Source of the DNA: Planktothrix pseudagardhii
Lineage (GTDB): Bacteria; Cyanobacteriota; Cyanobacteriia; Cyanobacteriales; Microcoleaceae
Assembly: GCF_904830925.1 (NCBI RefSeq)
Contig: NZ_LR882967.1
Location: 3,618,106-3,682,105, forward strand
Direction: 5' to 3'
DNA length: 64,000 nucleotides
The notes below the pieces were generated by a model. That model was not told where the DNA came from. It did no database searches and saw nothing but the letters and a program-made list of their open reading frames with translations. Made by a program: the position numbers and the translations under genes. Below, in pieces: positions 24,057 to 36,883 of this stretch (within the stretch, counting starts at the first letter, position 1; the number at the start of each line of letters is the position of its first letter).

Positions 24057-24590
24057 ATGATGATTCCCGTAATTCCTTCCACGTTTGTGTTGACCTTGTT
24101 ACTGGCGATTGGCTTATTCTTCTTTGTGCGGGCTTCGACCAAAGATCGAACACAGCAGGAAAAGCTAATGGCTGAACAAGAAGCAGACTCTTTGCTTACG
24201 CAAATTCAACAGTATTTCGCAGCACGAGCTTATCGTGTGACGAAATTAAATCGGGAAGACAATCAAATCACCTTTGAGGGGTTAGTTCGTCCCAGTTGGT
24301 TTCTAGCCATCTTCTTAACCCTATTAACGGCCGTTGGGCTGTTATGTTTAGGATTAGTTCTATCGATGGCTATTCCCAACCTTGGCGAACTGTTTTGGGG
24401 ACTGGTGTTGCTTTCGCCCCTGGCGGGGTGGTTTTATTGGAAAGGTGCCAAGCGGCCAGAAAAAGTCTCTCTTAAGCTGGATGCTGTTCTCGGTCAGGGA
24501 AACCAAACTCAAAGTTTAATTACTGTAACCGCTCACCGAGACGAACTGGCAACGCTCAAACAAGCACTGCACCTCAAACCTTGCGAATAA
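24057..24590 (+). CDS. Conserved cyanobacterial-type membrane protein (3 predicted TM helices), possibly a DUF3529 / cytochrome b6f assembly CCB-like protein
   Basis: 177 aa. The hydrophobic N-terminal helix, soluble middle and two further TM helices fit this topology. The family assignment is tentative. Confidence 0.35.
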   Translation: MMIPVIPSTFVLTLLLAIGLFFFVRASTKDRTQQEKLMAEQEADSLLTQIQQYFAARAYRVTKLNREDNQITFEGLVRPSWFLAIFLTLLTAVGLLCLGLVLSMAIPNLGELFWGLVLLSPLAGWFYWKGAKRPEKVSLKLDAVLGQGNQTQSLITVTAHRDELATLKQALHLKPCE

Positions 24591-26862: not shown

Positions 26863-27501
26863 ATGAGTGCATCCAGTAACCCTGATAATCTGATTAATAA
26901 CCCAGTGAGTTCCTCTGTTCCTTTAGAAGAAAATTCAGGTAAACCACTTTCTTATGTTGCCCAGGAAGATATCATTTATCGTGCTTTTGATCGCAAAACC
27001 GTCTGTCGGGTTTTAAGCCAAGCTCATATTTATGTTTCCATTCGCTGGACAAGAACTCATCTTTATATTGGCATTCCCAGCACCGTTTTAGCGGCTGTTG
27101 CTGGTGTGCAAGCCATCTCCAGTTTAGGCGGAAATTATCAATTAGTGGCGGTGATTATTCCCGTTTTAGTCGCTATTCTTGCACCGTTATTAACCTTTTT
27201 AGATCCCAATGGTAAAGCGAATACCCATTTAGTCGCCTCCAGGGTTTATGAACAAATGGCCGATCAATATGATTCATTTTTACTCAAATGTCGTTTAGAA
27301 CCCCGACCCATCGAGGAAGAACTGAATGATTTAGTTCAGATAAATTCTGTGTATAGTGAAAGTAAAAAATCCCTTCCGGCTTGTCCTGAATGGGCGTATC
27401 AAAAAGCCCTCCGCACCGAAAATGACATCCAAAAACTGATTCCTGATGAGATCAAGAAAGCTGGAGGGTATGACAAATATATTGCCGATGCGCCCTCTTG
27501 A
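26863..27501 (+). CDS. Small 2-TM protein with SLATT-like organisation (soluble N-region, two adjacent TM helices, helical C-region)
   Basis: 212 aa. The TM helices IGIPSTVLAAVAGVQAISSL and LVAVIIPVLVAILAPLLTFL are separated by a short loop. The post-TM ...NTHLVASRVYEQMADQYDSFL resembles the conserved H...Y...L helix of SLATT domains. This is my recollection of the family pattern, not a database hit. Confidence 0.35.
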   Translation: MSASSNPDNLINNPVSSSVPLEENSGKPLSYVAQEDIIYRAFDRKTVCRVLSQAHIYVSIRWTRTHLYIGIPSTVLAAVAGVQAISSLGGNYQLVAVIIPVLVAILAPLLTFLDPNGKANTHLVASRVYEQMADQYDSFLLKCRLEPRPIEEELNDLVQINSVYSESKKSLPACPEWAYQKALRTENDIQKLIPDEIKKAGGYDKYIADAPS

Positions 27502-27622: not shown

Positions 27623-28315
27623 ATGGGTAACACACAATCTGATTTAGAAGGATTAGAAATTACACCAGGGGAAATCAAACATTGGAGTGGTATTAATCAG
27701 AAGTTACTCTACCGACCAGCTACCGTTAAAAAATTATTAGGGGAAGGTTTAAAAACCTTTTTTATCTTTTTATTATTATTAATGAGTTATTGGATTTGGA
27801 GTTTAATTTTTCCAGAACTCTCTTTAATTTTAATCATAATTTATTTAACCATTGGGGGACTATTAATTCTTGAGGATAGTGTAAAACTGTGGAATACCTT
27901 AACCCGTCCCCAATTCGTTAAACTGTGTCATCAAGTGGAGCGTTATAACGCCATTGTTAAAGCCTTAAAAATTTATGATCAACTCGATGCAATAGCCCAT
28001 CCCCCTGGAAAATTAAACAATCGAGAAGCTATTATTGCAGCTTTAAACTTAATTAGAACAGAATTAATTAAAGGATTAAAAATAGAACGAACCTTGAAAA
28101 AACATCAAAAATTTATTCAGCAATATTCCGAACTTTTTGATCCAAATTTCACCGCCTTAACGGTCTTACAAACAGAAAAACCCACAACAGAACAAGGAAG
28201 ACTCCTGTATCAAGCCTTTGAAATTGCTTCAGACGTTCATCAACAATTAAAACAACTTCAGGAACAACAGATTTCCCCTAATCGCAAGCAACAGACAATC
28301 AGAAACAAGGAATAG
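27623..28315 (+). CDS. Small 2-TM hypothetical protein with a C-terminal helical / coiled-coil region
   Basis: 230 aa. TM helices FFIFLLLLMSYWIWSLIF and LILIIIYLTIGGLLIL. It is co-directional with the upstream SLATT-like gene and the downstream module. Confidence 0.35.
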   Translation: MGNTQSDLEGLEITPGEIKHWSGINQKLLYRPATVKKLLGEGLKTFFIFLLLLMSYWIWSLIFPELSLILIIIYLTIGGLLILEDSVKLWNTLTRPQFVKLCHQVERYNAIVKALKIYDQLDAIAHPPGKLNNREAIIAALNLIRTELIKGLKIERTLKKHQKFIQQYSELFDPNFTALTVLQTEKPTTEQGRLLYQAFEIASDVHQQLKQLQEQQISPNRKQQTIRNKE

Positions 28316-28567: not shown

Positions 28568-29716
28568 TTGAGTGAGATTTGTACCCCAGTCGCACCAGGT
28601 CAACCGTTGACACCTTACCAGAAAATTGGTTTGGAATCAGTCACTCGTCTACATGGCGGACGGGATGTGGTACTGGCGATTGACCTAACGGAAAGCGTCG
28701 GTTTGAATGATGAAGGTCATTTGCGTTTACGTCAAATTGTTGAAGATAGCTTAAAATCAGGAGACACCGTTTATGTTGTGCCTTTTGCTACAAAAACTAA
28801 CCCTTCAACACCTGAGATCAACCCTTTAACTTTAGAAACTGCAATTCAGTTTAAAGGGAAAGCCGATGTAGAAAAGATTTTACAATTAATTCCCTTTCAG
28901 CCTGACCTGAGATTACAAAATACCGATATTCAACAAGCTGAGTTAACGATTTATCAGGGTTTAGCAGATCTCAATCAATGTCGTTTAACCCAGAATCAAC
29001 CGATTAAACCGCAATCGATTGTTTGGATTACCGATGCACCGTTATTTACAAAATCCCCTGCTACCTCTGAAGAATGGACGGAAACCCCAGCAGACAGTCC
29101 TTTCCGAATAGCAACTTCTCCAGAAACACAACAGCGCCAAGAGTGGTTAAATCAATTACCTTTAAATCAGCGATCGCTTCCGATTAAAACTCAAGAACAG
29201 CGACAATATAACCTAACAATTGTTGATATTCCTCCGAATGTTCAAGAGTTCTGTACTCCTACCCCCGGACAGAAAGAAACTTGTTTAGTTTCTCCTTATT
29301 TATGGAAACAGTTATGGCTACCCGGATTAATTTTAGGAATTTTAATTCTTGCTAGTGTCGGGATGGGAATTAAAATTTATCGTTTGAATAAAAAATGGAA
29401 ACTGATGGTTAATTTTGATGATGATGATCAGGTAGCAGATCAAACCTGCTCTCTCGGTAATCATCAAAGAATTGCCATTGGTGAATATGAATCTGGTTGT
29501 CAGGATACCATTGATTTACCTGGAGCAGAAGTTCGGGCTTATTTAGTCAGAAAAGGAGAAAAACTTTATTTAGAACCGACGAACAATAGCCGGATTGAAT
29601 ATCAAGACAAAATTGTCGATCAAAAAATCCAAATAACCAGAAGTAGGATAAATTTTAATTGCCCTAATCCTAAACCTCCCAAAAACTACAGATTAACCAT
29701 TAAAATTCAAAAATAA
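28568..29716 (+). CDS. vWA-domain (MIDAS DxTxS) protein with a single TM helix and a C-terminal FHA-like domain
   Basis: The N-terminal ...DVVLAIDLTESVGLND... fits the vWA MIDAS motif (DxS/TxS). A Pro/Thr/Gln-rich linker follows, then the TM helix LWLPGLILGILILASVGMGI. The C-terminal approximately 100 aa (...RIAIGEYESGCQDTIDLPGAEVRAYLVRKGEKLYLEPTNNSRIEYQDKIV) follows the FHA pattern. The ORF begins with a non-ATG (TTG) start in the track. Confidence 0.5.
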   Translation: MSEICTPVAPGQPLTPYQKIGLESVTRLHGGRDVVLAIDLTESVGLNDEGHLRLRQIVEDSLKSGDTVYVVPFATKTNPSTPEINPLTLETAIQFKGKADVEKILQLIPFQPDLRLQNTDIQQAELTIYQGLADLNQCRLTQNQPIKPQSIVWITDAPLFTKSPATSEEWTETPADSPFRIATSPETQQRQEWLNQLPLNQRSLPIKTQEQRQYNLTIVDIPPNVQEFCTPTPGQKETCLVSPYLWKQLWLPGLILGILILASVGMGIKIYRLNKKWKLMVNFDDDDQVADQTCSLGNHQRIAIGEYESGCQDTIDLPGAEVRAYLVRKGEKLYLEPTNNSRIEYQDKIVDQKIQITRSRINFNCPNPKPPKNYRLTIKIQK

Positions 29717-29737: not shown

Positions 29738-32700
29738 ATGCAAGCTAATGATTATCAACTGCAAGGAGTTCAACGCACAATTTGTATCGGATTAGGAGGA
29801 ACAGGACGAGATGTTTTAATGCGAATTCGGCGGTTAATTGTAGAAAAATATGGAGATTTAACAGAACTACCAATTGTTAGTTTTGTTCATATTGACACAG
29901 ATAAAACTGCCACTCAGTCCGCCAGTTTAAAAACAGGTAATACCTATCGGGGTGTTGATTTAAGTTTTCGAGATTCTGAAAAAGTAAATGCCATTTTAAC
30001 TTCCGCAGAAGTAACCAATTTTGTGCGAGGTGTAGAACAGCGTTCTAAATCCAATCGTTCTGGGCCGTTTGATCATATTTCTCGCTGGTTTCCGCCTCAA
30101 TTACTTCGTAATATTAGAGCCGTTGAAGAAGGAGCAAAAGGAATTCGACCTGTGGGAAGATTAGCGTTTTTTCATAATTATCAAAAGATCAAAACTGTCA
30201 TTGAAACCGCAGCAAAACGGACAATGGGTCATGAAGCAACCTTACTGAAAGCCAGATTAAAACTTGAACCCGGATTAAATATTTTTGTGATTGGTTCCCT
30301 CTGTGGCGGTACAGGAAGCGGAATGTTTTTAGATGTTGCTTATAGTTTAAGGAAATCCTATGGAGATAAAGGCACGCAATTACTCGGATATTTAGTGGTA
30401 AGTCCACAGTTATACAGCAATGCGTCCTATATGAATGCTAATACTTATGCAGCCTTAAAAGAACTCAATTATTATAGCAGTGCGGGGACTCGATTTGAAG
30501 CTTGTTATGATATGCAAAATTTGGTAATTGTTCAGGAACCTCGCGCCCCATTTGATTATACTTATTTAATTTCTAATGAAACGAACGGTGAATATACAAT
30601 CTTAGAACAACAAAAATTATGTAATGTAATTGCCCATAAAATCGCGTTAGATTTTATCGGAGAATTAGCCCCTGTTGCTAAAGGAATGCGGGATAATTTA
30701 CTAAACCATTTAATTCAATCGGATAATCATCCCCGTCCTAATACTCAAGGATATTTAACCTTTGGCTTGGCTGCGATTTATTTTCCTCGTGAAATTATCG
30801 TAAAAATTGCCTTAAATCGAATTAGTTTAAAATTGGTTAATTTTTGGTTAAATGGAGAAGGTCAAAGTCCCGATCCTCAATTAATTATTGAACAATTTTT
30901 GATTAAATATAATTGGTATAGCGATTTAATCCAACGGGATGGGTTTAAAGAACGACTTGCTGGAGGCGTTCAAGAAGGGAGCAAAAACTTTTCTACGACC
31001 TTAACTAAATTCAGAGAGAAATTAATTCAAAAAATTAATGAGTGTAGAAATAGTGAAGATCGGCTCAGTTTAAAAAACAACTTATTACGAGAATTACGAG
31101 AACAGTTCAGAAAAGTTCTGCCGGGAGAAACGGAAACAACAAGAGGAATTTGGTTAACTCGGTTAATGCAGGTACAACCGCTCATCGCTCAACAATTGAA
31201 AAATCATATTAATGAATTTATTGAGGAATTAATGACCCCTAGCAATCCCAAATTTTCGACTAAAAGTGTTCGTGATTGGTTAGAGGCGATGCAAACAGAA
31301 TTAAACACCTATCAACGTCAGTTAGAGGAAGAAATTAGTCAAGGGGAAGGAATGAAAAAAAATGAAGACTTAGAGAAAAAATTGCGAGATTTAGAACAGA
31401 ACATGGATGAGATAGAGCAAAGAATTGAACTCCCCATACTGAATCGTAAAAATGCCGATATTCAGAGATTAGCGAGAAACGTTGTTCAAAGTATTATGCA
31501 GTTAATTCAGCATAATTTCAAATTAGCAGTAACTCAAGAAACATTAAAAATCGTCAATGATTTGCAAAAGTATGTTAGAGATTGTTCGACTGAAGTTGCC
31601 ACCTTTAGCCGGATGATCGAAAATTTAAAAACGAATTATGAGAAAGAACAAAATGATCTGATAAATTCTAATTTTAATGAAATGAGTGGAGAAGCTATTT
31701 TTGCTCAAGAAGATATTGAAGAATGTTATCAAACCTTATTACCTGATTTAGAGTTTCGCTCTGCATTGGTGTTAGTGAGTAAAGATATTACAGAGGCATC
31801 TGGGGTAGGAGAATCGATCTGCTATTTAATTAATCGTACCACTGGAGAGCAACTGAAAACAGAAATTGATCAAAAAATAGATGGTGAATTTGGTTCTCGG
31901 AGTAACCAAATTGTTAAATCTGTGATTAAGCGTTTTATTCAAAAATATTCTGGGTCAATTCGTCCTACCCGTTTAGGACAAATTATTGAGCAGGCAGAAC
32001 CTTTATTACGTTTAAATGTGAGTGATCCTTATTTTTCTAATCTTTCGGATAAACGAAAAGAATTTATTGGATTTAAAGATACCGATGAGGTAGAAGTAAA
32101 TCAGTTTAAAATGACTCTGACTCGTGATTTGGGAATCGACCCAACGGCTTTAAAACCGACTCAAGCTGAAGATCAAATTTTAATTGTTCGGGAATATGGT
32201 GGGTTTCCTTTACGGTTGATTAATGGTTTAGAAGAAATCAGAAATCATTATATCCGAGAACAAAATAAAGATGGCTCAACTTGTCATTCTGATTATCAGA
32301 TCCCCTTTACTGATATTATCCCCCCAGATGCTAGACTCATGGAAGAATTGGAAGATGTTTTCTATCCTTGTTTAGCATTTCAGTTAATTGTTAAAAATCC
32401 TAAAAATCAAGGCTTAGAGTTTCAATATTACGATAATTTACGAGACTATTATTATACAGCAGAACTGAACCCAATTTGGAATCAAGCGTTAGAAGAACTA
32501 GCGAATCACCGAGAAATGACGAAAACGTTAAACGAGTTATTAGAGGAGGAAATTAATCAGATTCGTCAAAATCCTGATCTCTGGAAAAGTCAATATTTAC
32601 CCAGATTACAGCAATTTGTGGATTATGTGGATAATTTACCTGAATCTAATCCTAATTATCTTTATAAATCAACGGTTGTGGGGACTCCGGGTACAATTAA

Positions 32701-32965
32701 TAATTTAGGACATGAAGGAGTTATTAATCGTTTTCGTCGAAAAATTCAGGAAAGTCTAACTAAGACTGGAAGTTTACCAACATCGGTTAATGACGATTCT
32801 GCCGCTTTAGTAAAGCGTGGAGAAAATTCCAGAGATTTTAACCAAAGTGATGACAGTTTAGAGGCAAAATTAAGGCAGCTAAAACAAAAATTAGATCAGG
32901 GGTTCATTACTCAAAAAGGATATGAATTTGAGAAAGAAGAAATTCTACGGAAATATGGTTGTTAA
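29738..32965 (+). CDS. Giant tubulin/FtsZ-superfamily GTPase (FtsZl1-like) with a long alpha-helical extension and a C-terminal SHOCT-like motif
   Basis: 1075 aa. The N-terminal glycine loop RTICIGLGGTGRDVLMRI is T1/phosphate-binding-like. GSLCGGTGSGMFLDVAY contains the tubulin/FtsZ signature GGTGSG. NYQK is followed by a T7-like region. The remaining approximately 650 aa are Glu/Lys/Gln-rich helical. The C-terminal ...LRQLKQKLDQGFITQKGYEFEKEEILRKYGC matches the SHOCT short C-terminal domain pattern. Confidence 0.7.
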   Translation: MQANDYQLQGVQRTICIGLGGTGRDVLMRIRRLIVEKYGDLTELPIVSFVHIDTDKTATQSASLKTGNTYRGVDLSFRDSEKVNAILTSAEVTNFVRGVEQRSKSNRSGPFDHISRWFPPQLLRNIRAVEEGAKGIRPVGRLAFFHNYQKIKTVIETAAKRTMGHEATLLKARLKLEPGLNIFVIGSLCGGTGSGMFLDVAYSLRKSYGDKGTQLLGYLVVSPQLYSNASYMNANTYAALKELNYYSSAGTRFEACYDMQNLVIVQEPRAPFDYTYLISNETNGEYTILEQQKLCNVIAHKIALDFIGELAPVAKGMRDNLLNHLIQSDNHPRPNTQGYLTFGLAAIYFPREIIVKIALNRISLKLVNFWLNGEGQSPDPQLIIEQFLIKYNWYSDLIQRDGFKERLAGGVQEGSKNFSTTLTKFREKLIQKINECRNSEDRLSLKNNLLRELREQFRKVLPGETETTRGIWLTRLMQVQPLIAQQLKNHINEFIEELMTPSNPKFSTKSVRDWLEAMQTELNTYQRQLEEEISQGEGMKKNEDLEKKLRDLEQNMDEIEQRIELPILNRKNADIQRLARNVVQSIMQLIQHNFKLAVTQETLKIVNDLQKYVRDCSTEVATFSRMIENLKTNYEKEQNDLINSNFNEMSGEAIFAQEDIEECYQTLLPDLEFRSALVLVSKDITEASGVGESICYLINRTTGEQLKTEIDQKIDGEFGSRSNQIVKSVIKRFIQKYSGSIRPTRLGQIIEQAEPLLRLNVSDPYFSNLSDKRKEFIGFKDTDEVEVNQFKMTLTRDLGIDPTALKPTQAEDQILIVREYGGFPLRLINGLEEIRNHYIREQNKDGSTCHSDYQIPFTDIIPPDARLMEELEDVFYPCLAFQLIVKNPKNQGLEFQYYDNLRDYYYTAELNPIWNQALEELANHREMTKTLNELLEEEINQIRQNPDLWKSQYLPRLQQFVDYVDNLPESNPNYLYKSTVVGTPGTINNLGHEGVINRFRRKIQESLTKTGSLPTSVNDDSAALVKRGENSRDFNQSDDSLEAKLRQLKQKLDQGFITQKGYEFEKEEILRKYGC

Positions 32966-33027: not shown

Positions 33028-34599
33028 ATGTTGTTTCCTTCTTTTCCTCCTTTACCGCCTTTGTTAATCATTTTGATCGGGATATTTGTGTTTATTCCCT
33101 CGATCATTACCCTCTATTATCGCTGGAATCTTTATCAACATTTAACCACTCAAGCGAATAAAATTTATCAGATTATCAATAAACGGGAGCTTGAACTCCC
33201 GCCTGCGATTGTACAAGTTTTAGAACAGAGTTTTGCAGAATCCAGCCAAAATTTAGAACAAGTGAACACGGCGGCTTTGATTGATCAAGCCTACAGCCAA
33301 GAAAAGGTTTTAGGGAAATCCTGCGAACAAATTGAATATTGGTGTCGAATTATTCCGAATTTACTCCTGGCTTTTGGATTAATTGGAACCTTTATTGGAA
33401 TTACGGTCAATTTGGGTTCTTTGAGTCAAACTATTAGTCAAAGTCAAGCAACGGATGTTAGTCAGTTAGTAGAGGAATTAAAACAACCCCTAGAAGGAAT
33501 GGCGATCGCTTTTATTACCAGTTTAGCTGGGTTATTGTGTAGTGCATTATTAACTGTTTTAAACTTTTTATGGAATACGAGTCTAGCGAAATATCGTTTA
33601 ACGGTTTCTTTAGAACATTACCTCGATAATATTTATTATTCATCCTTAAATGGTCAAACTCGGTTGGATAAAGTTGTTAAAGGAATGTCGAGTGAATTTA
33701 AAGATTTTTTAGATCGATTTGGTATTACTGTTAGAGATGCGGTGGAATCTGCCATGAGAGATAATATTCATCAAATTACAAAAGCGAATGTAGAAGCGAG
33801 TGAATTAGCTCTAAAAGTCTATAGTCAATTATCCAATGCTACAGGAACGTTAGAAAGGGGAGCTAGAGAGTTTCAAACCGCCACAGAAAGTTTTACAAAT
33901 GCGGTACAAGTGAGTAACACAACGGCTGATAAATTAGAACAAGTTGCTCAAGGTTTTGAACAAAGTGAATTTCCTAAACAATTATCAATAATCGCTACTG
34001 ATTTTGGAGAGAATCAAAAGAATTTTTCTGACTCAGCATTCGGTTTATTTCAAACGGTTAAATCTTTGGAAACAATATTAAATCAACTTCAGATCTTTAC
34101 AGAGCAGTTATTAAAAACGGAAACAAAATTAAGTGAACTTAATCAAAGTTCCTTACAAGTTTTAGAGTTAAATCAAATTAATCAACAATCCCTAGTTGAA
34201 ATTATTCCTCAACTGCAACAAGGAGGAAAAAGCTTGGAGTTAAGTTCTCAAACGTTAGAGAATATCCAAAACAAACTTATTGATAAATCCGATCATTTAG
34301 AAGGTATTCATAAACAATTAGAAACCTTAGTTAAAACCCTTAATAGTTATACAAATACAGTGAATTTTGAACTAGAATCTTTAAGTAAAATGATGAATAA
34401 GCTCATTAAAGAACAAACAAATAGTAGTCAGTCCTATTCACAAGTCTTAGCGGATAAATTAGAAGCAGCAATTAAACCTAATATTAAGTATATTATTGAG
34501 ATGAAATCTGATTTATCTCAGGTACTTAAACTCTTAAAAGAACAAAGCGGTAATCCGGGAATTAAGAAAAATAAACCAAAATTTTGGGAAAGTAAATAA
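33028..34599 (+). CDS. MotA/TolQ/ExbB-family proton-channel protein with a long C-terminal coiled-coil tail (ZorA-like architecture)
   Basis: 523 aa. The TM core has the family motif LLLAFGLIGTFIGITVNLG and LEGMAIAFITSLAGLLCSALLTVLN (compare LGLLGTVIGI / A..TT.GL of MotA/ExbB). Approximately 330 C-terminal residues are Gln/Ser/Asn/Glu/Leu-rich and predicted helical. Confidence 0.65.
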   Translation: MLFPSFPPLPPLLIILIGIFVFIPSIITLYYRWNLYQHLTTQANKIYQIINKRELELPPAIVQVLEQSFAESSQNLEQVNTAALIDQAYSQEKVLGKSCEQIEYWCRIIPNLLLAFGLIGTFIGITVNLGSLSQTISQSQATDVSQLVEELKQPLEGMAIAFITSLAGLLCSALLTVLNFLWNTSLAKYRLTVSLEHYLDNIYYSSLNGQTRLDKVVKGMSSEFKDFLDRFGITVRDAVESAMRDNIHQITKANVEASELALKVYSQLSNATGTLERGAREFQTATESFTNAVQVSNTTADKLEQVAQGFEQSEFPKQLSIIATDFGENQKNFSDSAFGLFQTVKSLETILNQLQIFTEQLLKTETKLSELNQSSLQVLELNQINQQSLVEIIPQLQQGGKSLELSSQTLENIQNKLIDKSDHLEGIHKQLETLVKTLNSYTNTVNFELESLSKMMNKLIKEQTNSSQSYSQVLADKLEAAIKPNIKYIIEMKSDLSQVLKLLKEQSGNPGIKKNKPKFWESK

Positions 34600-34733: not shown

Positions 34734-35456
34734 ATGCGTCGTCCGACTCAAATTAAAAATTCATCGGAAGATTTGAATGTCTGGCAAGCATTTACAGATT
34801 TAATGTCTAATGCTTTTTTAATTATGAGCTTGTTTTTATTGTTAGCCATTGTTAAATCATCGTTATTAACTTCTAATTCAAAAGAAAAAGATCAGAAAAT
34901 TAAAGGCTTAGAATTAACAGTTGGTTCATTAAAAAACGAAATTGAACGATTAAAAGCTCCACCAGTCATTGTGATTAAAGATTCTGATCGAGATGCACAG
35001 GGGCGATCTTTAAAATTTGAGACAGGTAAGGCAGATTTACCGGAAGGGTTGCGAATTTTTATTGAAGGGAATGTGGTGGAAAAATTAGAGGAATTTTCTA
35101 AAGTTTATCAAGGTTATGTAGTGGATGTAATTGGACATACTGATGGTCAAGAAACCTTTAATCCTGCTAGTAATTTAGATCAAATCTTAGAACAAGTTGC
35201 ACAGGGGAACCAACCTGTTAAAAATCTCAAACCCGGTTCCAATGCTGATTTAGGATTAATGCGCTCTTTAGCAGTTGTTAAAAAACTCCAAGCTATTCAA
35301 GAACAAGGTCGTTTAAAGGGGTTAAAATTTAGAGCTTATTCAGCCGCACAATTATTTTTACCTTCAGGACAATATGCGTCGCAAAATCGTGCTTCTGATG
35401 AAACAAGAAGACGTATCGAAATTCGCTTTACTCCCCCAGGAGTTGAACAATATTAA
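34734..35456 (+). CDS. MotB/OmpA-family partner: single TM with conserved Asp, C-terminal OmpA-like peptidoglycan-binding domain
   Basis: 240 aa. The N-terminal WQAFTDLMSNAFLIMSLFLLLAIV resembles the MotB/ExbD plug-TM segment (Asp in FTDLMS). The C-terminal VIGHTDGQE...NADLGLMRSLAVVKKLQ...RRRIEIRF matches the OmpA_C consensus. Confidence 0.65.
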   Translation: MRRPTQIKNSSEDLNVWQAFTDLMSNAFLIMSLFLLLAIVKSSLLTSNSKEKDQKIKGLELTVGSLKNEIERLKAPPVIVIKDSDRDAQGRSLKFETGKADLPEGLRIFIEGNVVEKLEEFSKVYQGYVVDVIGHTDGQETFNPASNLDQILEQVAQGNQPVKNLKPGSNADLGLMRSLAVVKKLQAIQEQGRLKGLKFRAYSAAQLFLPSGQYASQNRASDETRRRIEIRFTPPGVEQY

Positions 35457-35692: not shown

Positions 35693-36883
35693 TAAGCTGT
35701 TAAGCATCTAAATAGGGTATAATGAAAAACCAAGTTTAGAAAAATCAATCAAAAGATGCCTGCTAAAAATCATTTAAATGAAAAGCAAGTAGAGAAACTA
35801 CAGAAAAGATTGAAAGAGGAAGAAAATGGACAAATCCGAGAAAGAATCTTGATTTTATTATTGCTAAATGATGGTAAAAAGCAAAGTGAAATTGCCAAGT
35901 TTTTGGGCTGCTCATTAAACAAAGTATGTTATTGGTGTGTACATGGAGACCCTGACAAATTAGAAAGCCTAAAAGATGAAAGAATGAAAGGAAATTATAG
36001 AAAAGCCACAGACAAATATATAGAGATATTATTAGAAACAGTAGAAAAAGAACCGGAAGAATTAGGATATGAATTTGGGAGATGGACAGGAGAAAGATTG
36101 GCAACTTATTTAGAACAAATCACAGGAATCAAATTAAGTAGTTCACAAGTGAGAAAGATATTAAAGGAAAAAAAGTATGTTTATTTGTGGGCAAAGTATA
36201 GCTTAGAAGAGAAAAGAGATCCAGAAAAAAGAAAATTATTTAAAGATAAAATAGAAGAATATTTGAAAATAGCAAAAGAAAGTCCAGAACAATTACAGGT
36301 ATGGTTTTGGGATGAAAGTGGATTTAATTTAAGAGTGATAAAAAGAAAGAATTGGTGTAAAAAAGGGAAGAGGAAACAGATTAGAGGAGACAGGAGGAAA
36401 GGAAGAGTTAATGTGATGGGAGGATTGAGGTACTCGGATAAAAAAAGATTTGTAGAATTTCTGGATAAAGGAAATGCAGATAATTTTTATCAAGTGTTAA
36501 AAAGTTTTTATCAAGAGCTAATTTATGAATGGGTATTAGCGGGAAATCAAGCAGAAGAATTTGTAGAAAAAGGAGCTAAGATCCTGATTATTCTTGACAA
36601 TGCAAGTTTTCACAAAAAAGAAGAGTACCTAGAAAAAATTAAAGCAGAAATGCCGAATGTCTATTTAGAATTTCTTCCAGCATATAGTCCAGATTATAAT
36701 TTAATTGAATTAGTCTGGCATTCAGCTAAAGAATATATAGCTCATCGACTCTTTAAATCAGTTGATGAGCTAGAGTGTTTATTACATCAGCTTTTAAATG
36801 AAGGACAGTTATCTATTAAATGGGGACGTAAACTTAAAAACAAAGGTAATGCTATAATCACAGTTTAAATACACAACAGCTTA
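35693..36883 (+). mobile_element. IS630-family insertion sequence, copy 2, identical to copy 1 and in the same orientation
   Basis: 35693-36883 matches 14432-15622 base for base across the compared sequence and carries the same TA-flanked imperfect inverted repeats. The flanking sequences differ on both sides. Confidence 0.8.
35756..36868 (+). CDS. IS630-family transposase (identical to 14495..15607)
   Basis: The 370-aa translation is identical to copy 1. Confidence 0.85.
   Translation: MPAKNHLNEKQVEKLQKRLKEEENGQIRERILILLLLNDGKKQSEIAKFLGCSLNKVCYWCVHGDPDKLESLKDERMKGNYRKATDKYIEILLETVEKEPEELGYEFGRWTGERLATYLEQITGIKLSSSQVRKILKEKKYVYLWAKYSLEEKRDPEKRKLFKDKIEEYLKIAKESPEQLQVWFWDESGFNLRVIKRKNWCKKGKRKQIRGDRRKGRVNVMGGLRYSDKKRFVEFLDKGNADNFYQVLKSFYQELIYEWVLAGNQAEEFVEKGAKILIILDNASFHKKEEYLEKIKAEMPNVYLEFLPAYSPDYNLIELVWHSAKEYIAHRLFKSVDELECLLHQLLNEGQLSIKWGRKLKNKGNAIITV

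Follow-up and report, generated by a model that had tools for sequence, protein, structure and literature searches.

A tubulin-like FtsZl1 protein of Planktothrix pseudagardhii is encoded in a conserved cassette with putative ZorA/ZorB-like stator genes

Results

A stretch of 64,000 nucleotides (nt) of Planktothrix pseudagardhii DNA (NCBI RefSeq assembly GCF_904830925.1, contig NZ_LR882967.1, positions 3,618,106 to 3,682,105 of the forward strand) was analyzed; it is called the window below, and positions are counted from its first letter. On its plus strand, an open reading frame (ORF) at 29738..32965 runs uninterrupted from ATG to stop and encodes a protein of 1075 amino acids (aa), and the strand opposite to it is rich in stops. 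On the basis of the ORF, Pfam and homologue searches, the protein is assigned to the FtsZl1 family (Pfam Tubulin_2). Its gene stands second in a close-packed group of four that share one strand and encode, from 5' to 3', a vWA-like membrane protein, FtsZl1, a ZorA-like membrane protein and a ZorB/MotB-like protein, with gaps of 22, 62 and 134 nt between them.

The Pfam model PF13809 (Tubulin_2, "Tubulin like") covers aa 15-367 of the protein over profile positions 1-355 of 356, with an E-value of 3.2e-109 and 365.9 bits, the cut-off being 27 bits. The general Tubulin/FtsZ model PF00091 matched weakly and at the T4 loop only (aa 182-248; 18 bits, cut-off 33), and PADLOC and NCBIfam scans of FtsZl1 yielded no meaningful match. 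Among 5.8 billion proteins searched, 688 homologues were found, mostly of full length; the best 120 of these 688 are nearly all full-length (~1020-1116 aa) and cyanobacterial (Planktothrix, Kamptonema, Nostoc, Anabaena, Fischerella and others). Many homologues already carry the NCBI name "tubulin-like domain-containing protein", and some bear precomputed matches to both PF13809 and the SHOCT model PF09851. When aa 1-400 were searched exhaustively against a library of 1.84 billion proteins, 4599 representatives of clusters at 50% identity were found at E<=1e-3, most of them 1000-1200 aa long. The identities follow taxonomy, with 75-97% in Planktothrix (91-97% in the nearest relatives), ~65% in Kamptonema and 54-60% in Nostocales.

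The FtsZl1 family was first described by Makarova and Koonin (2010, Biol Direct 5:33; PMC2875224) as a divergent relative of tubulin and FtsZ with a prototype of 1051 aa, and PF13809 represents the FtsZ-like sequences of that study (PMC9871819). Cyanobacterial members were already in the 2010 set, Ava_1848, Tery_1707 and Huta_2051 belong to the family, and a coiled coil and a conserved C-terminal domain were part of its description, at lengths of ~1000-1100 aa (Makarova and Koonin, 2010). The window protein shows the same architecture, an FtsZ-like domain at the N-terminus followed by a coiled coil and a conserved C-terminal domain, and is, judged by its sequence, a cyanobacterial member of the family and an orthologue of Ava_1848 and Tery_1707. 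Compared with the family of 2010, the architecture (~1050-1100 aa) and the operon partners are the same, and nothing essential differs. An earlier, sequence-only reading of this DNA had taken the protein for an undescribed tubulin-SHOCT fusion. Because it belongs to FtsZl1, it is not such a fusion, and the claim of novelty fails: the protein, its family, the Pfam model and the operon are already on record, the orthologous operon Ava_1847-1850 having been tabulated in 2010, and homologues with both PF13809 and PF09851 are found among the precomputed matches.

The N-terminal tubulin/FtsZ-type nucleotide-binding domain (aa 1-367, 29738..30838, +), delimited by the span of PF13809, contains family-specific inserts and a helical extension. 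Sequence, alignment and a structural model place a T1-type glycine loop, GLGGTG, at aa 18-23 (29789..29806, +) between S1 and H1, and the T4 signature GGTGSG at aa 190-195 (30305..30322, +) between S4 and H4. Residues G18, G20, G21 and G23 as well as G190, G191, T192 and G193 are invariant in a diverse family alignment of 53 sequences (27-58% identity), and GGTGSG is kept in 119 of 120 homologues. In the profile alignment, slcGGtGsGm falls onto slGGGTGSGm of beta-tubulin and the match runs on through the tubulin T5/H5 stretch; the T4 region also aligns with positions 112-175 of the PF00091 profile. The invariance of T1 and T4 over long evolutionary distances suggests that nucleotide binding is under selection, which does not separate a switch from a polymer.

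Searches of the PDB sequences with the full protein and with a profile of the N-domain returned nothing significant, and the relationship was seen only by fold search. A model of aa 1-430 was computed with AlphaFold from an alignment with 52 diverse family members (pLDDT 88.4, pTM 0.82); an earlier run with 26 cyanobacterial sequences had been poor (pLDDT 44), the top 50 Foldseek matches all being tubulins at TM≈0.3. With the model of aa 1-430, Foldseek against the PDB ranked CetZ2, CetZ and CetZ1 at the top, followed by tubulins, BtubA, gamma-tubulin and FtsZ, with a best E-value of 2.9e-8 and 886 matches at E<=1e-3. In this model, GLGGTG lies between a strand (aa 9-19) and a helix (aa 20-38), in the order S1-T1-H1, and GGTGSG between a strand (aa 174-187) and a helix (aa 191-208), in the order S4-T4-H4.

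The superposition of the modelled aa 1-430 on tubulins is limited to 209-234 residues, which make up the nucleotide-binding half of the fold. Neither a T7 loop nor an activation domain was found in this superposition or in the Pfam scan, and the latter gave no match to FtsZ_C or Tubulin_C. In tubulin and FtsZ, the activation domain and the T7 loop make the proteins polymerisation-dependent GTPases, the T7 loop giving a catalytic acidic residue to the next subunit. Since only 209-234 residues superpose and these elements were not detected, tubulin-style GTP hydrolysis coupled to polymerisation is not supported for FtsZl1. The model ends before the C-terminal domain (aa 655-1005), where a displaced counterpart of these elements may lie; an activation-domain-like fold there would restore the canonical mechanism. 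Makarova and Koonin (2010) could not align the family beyond helix H5 either, that is, neither T6-H7 nor any C-terminal domain.

The model indicates that nucleotide binding at the N-terminus is the task of a true domain of the tubulin/FtsZ type, and GTP binding by FtsZl1 is predicted from the intact T1/T4 pocket. The sequence-only reading, which had noted GGTGSG and not the GGGTGTG of FtsZ in an FtsZ-like N-terminal core, is borne out here: PF13809 spans this core, GGTGSG falls on the T4 loop, and the top-ranked Foldseek matches belong to the tubulin superfamily. The GTP-binding loops could be mapped for T1 and T4 and, by alignment, for the T5/H5 stretch, but not for T7. In the helical extension after the GTPase core, R318 is near-invariant family-wide, and D319 and N320 are invariant among the cyanobacterial orthologues.

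Among cyanobacteria, the protein is conserved over its whole length (block values 0.64-0.91) except at aa ~1001-1050 (0.39), and the mean column identity of the N-domain is 82%. A crude heptad scan of our own against shuffled controls found coiled-coil-like segments only at aa 505-565 and 600-647, and these two segments form a coiled-coil-like region at aa ~505-647 (31250..31678, +). A conserved C-terminal globular domain (ExGGFPLR...Y...H...FxDIxPxD; aa ~655-1005, 31700..32752, +) was delimited by the conservation of length and motifs across distant members; its family-wide signature comprises E819-x-G-G-F-P-L-R826, Y838, H850 and F-x-D859-I-x-P-x-D864. A profile of aa 655-1005 found no credible relative in the PDB sequences or Pfam, the only matches in the PDB being spurious ones to TALE repeats and apolipoprotein, and those in Pfam pointing to no consistent family. 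R318, with D319 and N320, and the near-invariant residues of ExGGFPLR...Y...H...FxDIxPxD may be part of a non-canonical interface for catalysis or assembly.

The domain is followed by a poorly conserved, probably flexible linker (aa ~1006-1040, 32753..32857, +), which has the lowest mean column conservation in the protein (0.39) and differs in length and sequence among orthologues. A hydropathy scan of FtsZl1 showed no transmembrane (TM) segment. The helical region of ~650 aa that had been proposed for this part of the protein does not stand as one block: helical extensions and a coiled coil of ~150 aa are there, and the rest consists of a globular domain of ~350 aa and the variable linker.

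The protein ends in a SHOCT-like two-helix tail, LEAKLRQLKQKLDQGFITQKGYEFEKEEILRKYGC (aa 1041-1075, 32858..32962, +), which corresponds to the last 35 codons of the ORF and was recognized from the profile matches of orthologous tails. These 35 residues align to positions 2-28 of 28 of the SHOCT profile, as a short two-helix motif at the extreme C-terminus. Against PF09851, the window tail scored 11.1 bits as part of the whole protein and 17 bits when taken by itself and did not reach the cut-off of 27, but 21 of 38 non-identical, in-register orthologous tails matched this model (best E=4.7e-10). Nine of the 38 matched SHOCT_2, 22 of the 38 matched the C-terminal helix pair of GvpG, and the window tail itself passed the threshold for the SHOCT-like N-terminal motif of DMAP_binding (29.8 bits). 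The earlier claim that the C-terminus fits SHOCT holds at the level of the family and not for the window sequence alone. To call it an oligomerisation motif is not justified, since the describers of SHOCT proposed oligomerisation and their own experiment did not support it (PMC3581485).

Among distant FtsZl1 members, the tails at the same place are SHOCT-like in P0156, P0157 (a precomputed Pfam match) and P0173, and zinc ribbons in P0142, P0144, P0155, P0166 and P0179. Since other tails stand in the same place, the tail appears to be an exchangeable end module carried by a flexible linker. FtsZ and TubZ are tethered through a linker with a C-terminal peptide, and by analogy the linker and SHOCT-like tail of FtsZl1 are a likely tether. 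A later comparative study predicts that two-helix domains of the SHOCT-like kind serve as anchors of proteins at the inner leaflet of the membrane (PMC11237479).

The first gene of the cassette encodes the vWA-like membrane protein of 382 aa (28568..29716, +), which was named from its motifs, its gene position and the assignment of its orthologue Ava_1847 to COG2304 (vWA) in the 2010 supplement (PMC2875224). The motifs DxTxS (aa 39-43), GDxVYVVPF, TDIQ and VWITDAP occur in the right order, and the protein has one hydrophobic segment (aa 250-268) and a beta-rich C-terminal part of ~110 aa. The profile evidence is weak: VWA_2 matched 5 of 29 orthologues at E>=0.075, an hhalign comparison with the vWA neighbour of a distant FtsZl1, itself positive in Pfam, gave E=1e-3, and the window protein alone had no sequence match in Pfam, NCBIfam, PADLOC or the PDB. 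Conserved cysteines flank the hydrophobic segment (C229 and C239 on one side; C294, C311 and C365 on the other), a K/R-rich stretch follows it, and a signal peptide is lacking. The C-terminal ~110 aa resemble FHA, judged by visual inspection only.

The third gene encodes the ZorA-like membrane protein of the MotA/ExbB family, 523 aa in length (33028..34599, +), which was identified by PADLOC, PDB and NCBIfam matches and by its motifs. It has three hydrophobic segments, the conserved motifs PNLLxxFGLxGTF and GMxIAFxTSL, and a long heptad-rich tail (heptads at aa 237-476). Its best match was ZorA everywhere, with E=1.4e-12 in PADLOC, E=9.7e-5 to E. coli ZorA in the PDB (8qyk, 8qyy, 8qyh, 8qyd) and E=1.5e-7 (30.9 bits) to ZorA_2 in NCBIfam; Pfam MotA_ExbB reached 17.9 bits against a cut-off of 22.9. 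The tail is kept to about residue 400 and is variable thereafter, and the listed cyanobacterial homologues P0271-P0390 measure ~440-678 aa, the longest being those of Dolichospermum/Anabaena. Tail length is functionally important in Zorya, and for this reason the length variation of the ZorA-like tail may matter.

The fourth gene encodes the ZorB/MotB-like protein of 240 aa (34734..35456, +), which was identified by PADLOC (ZorB, E=5e-9), the PDB (8vvn_B, MotB-related, E=1.2e-3) and motifs in 70 orthologues. These share an invariant FTDLMSNAF, with Asp22, at the start of the single TM helix and an OmpA-like peptidoglycan-binding C-terminal domain with invariant IGHTD, GSNADLGLMR and RRRIEIRF. 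The orthologue Ava_1850 was assigned to COG1360 in 2010 (Makarova and Koonin, 2010, supplement). Judged by the features of the third and fourth proteins, the family called 'B7' in that supplement is ZorA-like, belongs to the MotA family and has a coiled-coil tail, and what was called the OmpA-like partner is a plug protein of the inner membrane, of the MotB/ZorB type, and not an outer-membrane barrel.

The conservation of the cassette was assessed by tblastn in 84 cyanobacterial loci (Nostocales, Oscillatoriales, Trichodesmium, Halothece, Cyanosarcina and others). The vWA-like partner is present in 79 of them, the ZorA-like partner in 76 and the ZorB-like partner in 73, the gaps being due to short contigs, and order and strand are the same with very few exceptions. 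Window and Nostoc orthologues are 57% (vWA-like), 48% (ZorA-like) and 46% (ZorB-like) identical, and the genes flanking the cassette differ among Nostoc, P. agardhii and the window. Promoter and terminator scans gave fewer sites than in shuffled sequence and are not informative.

In the supplement of Makarova and Koonin (2010), the operons Ava_1847-1850 and Tery_1705-1709 are tabulated with COG2304 (vWA), family 'B7' and COG1360, and the same arrangement is given for Trichodesmium, Microcystis, Cyanothece PCC 8802 and Nodularia. For Deinococcus, it lists DR_0538 (FtsZl1), DR_0537 ("MotA/TolQ/ExbB") and DR_0536 (OmpA family); the main text never names MotA/ExbB and regards the OmpA-like partner as a beta-barrel protein of the membrane. 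In D. deserti, the neighbour shows homology to the ZorA-like protein of the window (E=9e-10), and its best match is also ZorA. In the 2010 supplement the cassette is listed for A. variabilis, and PCC 7120 is listed with another FtsZl1 subtype only.

The stator arrangement is present in one distant member (L090) and in Deinococcus. A stator partnership as a general trait of FtsZl1 was considered and rejected, since the distant members L085-L089 and L091-L092 are without the stator pair and have vWA with HSP70/GrpE/TPR, solute-binding proteins or kinases instead. Other FtsZl1 subtypes keep the adjacent vWA gene and swap the remaining partners (HSP70/GrpE/TPR; solute-binding proteins and Ser/Thr kinases). 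A second subtype that includes cyanobacterial members (L086, L087, L092) was seen with periplasmic solute-binding proteins (Peripla_BP_6 or PBP_like_2), at one locus together with a Ser/Thr kinase, and with no stator; P0142 (L086), the one protein checked from this subtype, ends in a zinc ribbon. FtsZl1 relatives are rare on mobile elements, with 12 plasmid records and one phage record. BrxL adjoins the copy on a Thermus plasmid, and CHAT and caspase genes lie near the copy on an N. punctiforme plasmid.

Two further genes lie upstream of the cassette. The first (26863-27501, +) encodes a protein with two TM segments that resembles SLATT_4 effectors (NCBIfam NF033632, 94 bits at a cut-off of 55; PADLOC '2TM effector', E=1.8e-20), and the second (27623-28315, +), which follows it, a 230-aa membrane protein with no family match. 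Their membership in the cassette was rejected; because they are kept only in the nearest Planktothrix relatives, the pair is probably a separate, possibly conflict-related module. Downstream, an IS630-like insertion sequence (IS) element (35693-36883) lies between the ZorB-like gene and an SBD_N/NBD_C kinase-like gene. It comprises a DDE_3 transposase ORF (35756-36868, +) and imperfect inverted repeats of 20 nt (35693-35712 and 36864-36883) and is absent at this place in the closest related contig. The window has a low GC content (~37%) and carries a CCB1 gene at 24057-24590.

Discussion

The domain content of FtsZl1 and the constancy of its partners suggest to us that the cassette specifies a GTP-binding assembly module that is linked to the cell envelope and coupled to a peptidoglycan-anchored, ion-driven stator, a reading that we hold to be somewhat on the probable side. 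FtsZl1 would be cytoplasmic, would bind GTP in the pocket formed by GLGGTG (T1) and GGTGSG (T4), and would self-associate through its central coiled coil, while the flexible linker and the SHOCT-like tail would hold it at the inner membrane face or on a partner. MotAB and ZorAB are peptidoglycan-anchored, ion-driven 5:2 stators (PMC12204202, PMC12422006), and by analogy the ZorA/ZorB-like pair would form a stator of this type, with a membrane-anchored vWA adaptor as the second partner of FtsZl1. The flow of ions through the stator, or its rotation, would depend on the condition of the cell wall, as has been proposed for Zorya, and would be relayed by the ZorA-like tail to FtsZl1; as the output, FtsZl1 would assemble or disassemble at this place of the envelope in a GTP-dependent manner.

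The biological role is the least certain part of this proposal. We favour a response to local envelope perturbation, either phage or conflict defence or envelope repair, over a constitutive cytoskeleton, and within the stator-coupled reading defence or repair appears somewhat more likely than constitutive remodelling. A more specific version can be put forward tentatively: the cassette may be a ZorAB-type envelope sensor of a kind not recognized so far, whose output at sites of envelope damage is not a nuclease but the GTP-dependent assembly of FtsZl1 with the vWA adaptor. Such a system, which we consider possible and would not call probable, would couple a rotary 5:2 motor directly, by mechanics or signalling, to a tubulin-like cytoskeletal element. 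It would serve in cyanophage defence or local envelope repair; Deinococcus would have it too, and the Gram-positive tubulin-vWA conflict systems would be its relatives.

Several points weigh against the stator-coupled reading. In the literature searched (Zorya with tubulin, locus tags, tubulin-like defence), we found no experiment on any FtsZl1 protein and no functional study of any orthologue. The T7 loop and the activation domain were not detected, and the coiled coil might be all that assembly depends on. The scores of the stator pair in NCBIfam lie far below the family cut-offs (30.9 bits against 100 for ZorA_2 and 15.3 bits against 400 for ZorB1), and PADLOC scans of the vWA-like protein, FtsZl1 and the two upstream genes gave no Zor effector, the cassette consisting of four genes only. 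The vWA assignment itself comes mainly from COG2304 in the 2010 supplement and from gene position, our own tests being weak, and the topology of this protein is ambiguous because it has no signal peptide and a K/R-rich stretch follows its hydrophobic segment. In Nostoc and P. agardhii, no obvious defence island surrounds the cassette, and the strong conservation of FtsZl1 and its occurrence in the P. agardhii genomes among the homologue matches look more like housekeeping. Partner swapping, the likeness to Zorya, patchiness at the strain level and conflict genes beside other subtypes point to an accessory or conflict role, so that there is evidence both ways.

The features that resemble housekeeping speak for the hypothesis of Makarova and Koonin (2010) that FtsZl1 belongs to a cytoskeleton for membrane or envelope remodelling, in which non-canonical filaments together with the vWA, MotA-like and OmpA-like proteins would shape thylakoid or cytoplasmic membranes, septa or vesicles in normal growth and not as a reaction to invaders. 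Conservation is high along all 1075 aa with identities that follow taxonomy, the neighbours of the cassette in Nostoc and P. agardhii are ordinary genes of metabolism and photosynthesis, and plasmid and phage records are few. The distribution in cyanobacteria is patchy, however: the 2010 census has none for Synechocystis or Synechococcus, and PCC 7120 is without this subtype while A. variabilis has it. The swapping of partner modules between subtypes is typical of accessory systems, of the characterized systems it is one of defence to which the stator pair is most closely related, and no canonical polymerisation domain is present; a housekeeping cytoskeleton is in our view a serious but rather doubtful explanation. 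The same lack of a polymerisation domain would suit a GTP-binding switch or scaffold that does not polymerise, its tubulin-like domain having lost cooperative assembly and serving only as a nucleotide-controlled regulator, with the coiled coil and the C-domain doing the work and the stator link possibly reflecting mere co-transcription. Only the nucleotide-binding half of the tubulin fold was detected, Makarova and Koonin (2010), whose alignment reached neither T6-H7 nor a C-terminal domain, left room for a family that does not form filaments, and the conserved C-domain with its invariant GGFPLR/Y/H has no known relative in the PDB sequences or Pfam. We nevertheless consider a switch of this kind improbable, given the tight synteny with the stator genes (gaps of 22 to ~135 nt) and, with the reservation made above, the invariance of T1 and T4.

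A conventional role within the tubulin superfamily, either as a paralogue of FtsZ in cell division or as a TubZ/PhuZ-like DNA-segregation motor of a mobile element, has very little to recommend it beyond the shared fold of FtsZ, TubZ and PhuZ and the IS element and SLATT gene nearby. FtsZ_C and Tubulin_C were not detected, PF00091 gives 18 bits where 33 are needed, and the motif is GGTGSG and not GGGTGTG. The gene is not in a dcw cluster and has no TubR-like or centromere-like partner; many species carry it on the chromosome, phages and plasmids almost never do, and the same genomes also carry a canonical FtsZ (Makarova and Koonin, 2010). By domain content and gene context this role is effectively refuted, and the sequence-only reading was right to set the protein apart from FtsZ, BtubA/B, TubZ and CetZ.

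FtsZl1 is a large family (~4,600 clusters at 50% identity) and the most divergent branch of the tubulin/FtsZ relatives, and sixteen years have passed since its description. The family itself is known, and it is the link to a stator that is under-appreciated: in cyanobacterial and Deinococcus operons, FtsZl1 is apparently paired with a ZorA/ZorB-like stator and not with an outer-membrane protein. As far as we found in the literature, which contained no paper linking FtsZl1 to Zorya-like stators, three points are new, namely that the 'B7' and COG1360 genes can be read as those of a ZorAB-like stator, that a structural model confirms the retention of only half of the tubulin fold, and that the linker with the SHOCT-like tail is a likely tether. 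We know of no case in which ion-driven 5:2 motors and tubulin-like GTPases work together; if the proposed coupling is true, it would link these two well-studied classes of machines, and it would help to settle whether FtsZl1 systems act in defence or in membrane remodelling.

Compared with known systems, FtsZl1 differs from FtsZ, CetZ, tubulin/BtubAB and TubZ/PhuZ by its large family-specific inserts between T1 and T4, by having no detectable T7/activation domain, FtsZ_C or Tubulin_C, by a further ~700 residues, which comprise the coiled coil, a novel globular domain and the SHOCT-like tail, and by its gene context. The cassette resembles Zorya (ZorAB with ZorCD, ZorE or ZorFG) in its MotA-like subunit with a long cytoplasmic coiled-coil tail, in its MotB-like subunit with a TM Asp and a peptidoglycan-binding domain, and in the co-transcription of stator genes with genes of soluble cytoplasmic partners. 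Unlike in Zorya, these partners are encoded upstream of the stator, the scores remain far below the ZorA and ZorB cut-offs, and a vWA-like membrane protein and a tubulin-like GTPase take the place of ZorC/D/E/F/G; Zorya is an anti-phage system, whereas the cassette is not known to confer defence.

A membrane vWA protein encoded with a MotA/TolQ-family gene is also found in the systems of TMH-tethered vWA proteins and TolQ/ExbB-like 5:2 motors (Mol Biol Evol 2025, msaf138). The vWA domains of those systems are periplasmic force transducers on TolA/TonB-like or TolR-like helices, whereas the vWA-like domain of the FtsZl1 cassette is N-terminal and without a signal peptide, and a MotB-like partner is present. 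Tubulin, coiled coil and vWA also occur together in systems of Firmicutes and Actinobacteria that have been classed as conflict systems (Kaur, Burroughs, Iyer and Aravind, 2020, eLife 9:e52696; PMC7159879). These GAP1-N2-type systems are centred on GAP1-type GTPases and FNIII-repeat proteins (HSP70 in a related class), none of which the cassette has; it has a MotAB/ZorAB-like pair instead. Like the cassette, they combine a tubulin domain and C-terminal coiled-coil or helical domains with a neighbouring gene for a membrane vWA protein, and their enrichment in multicellular prokaryotes is matched by the occurrence of the cassette mostly in filamentous cyanobacteria.

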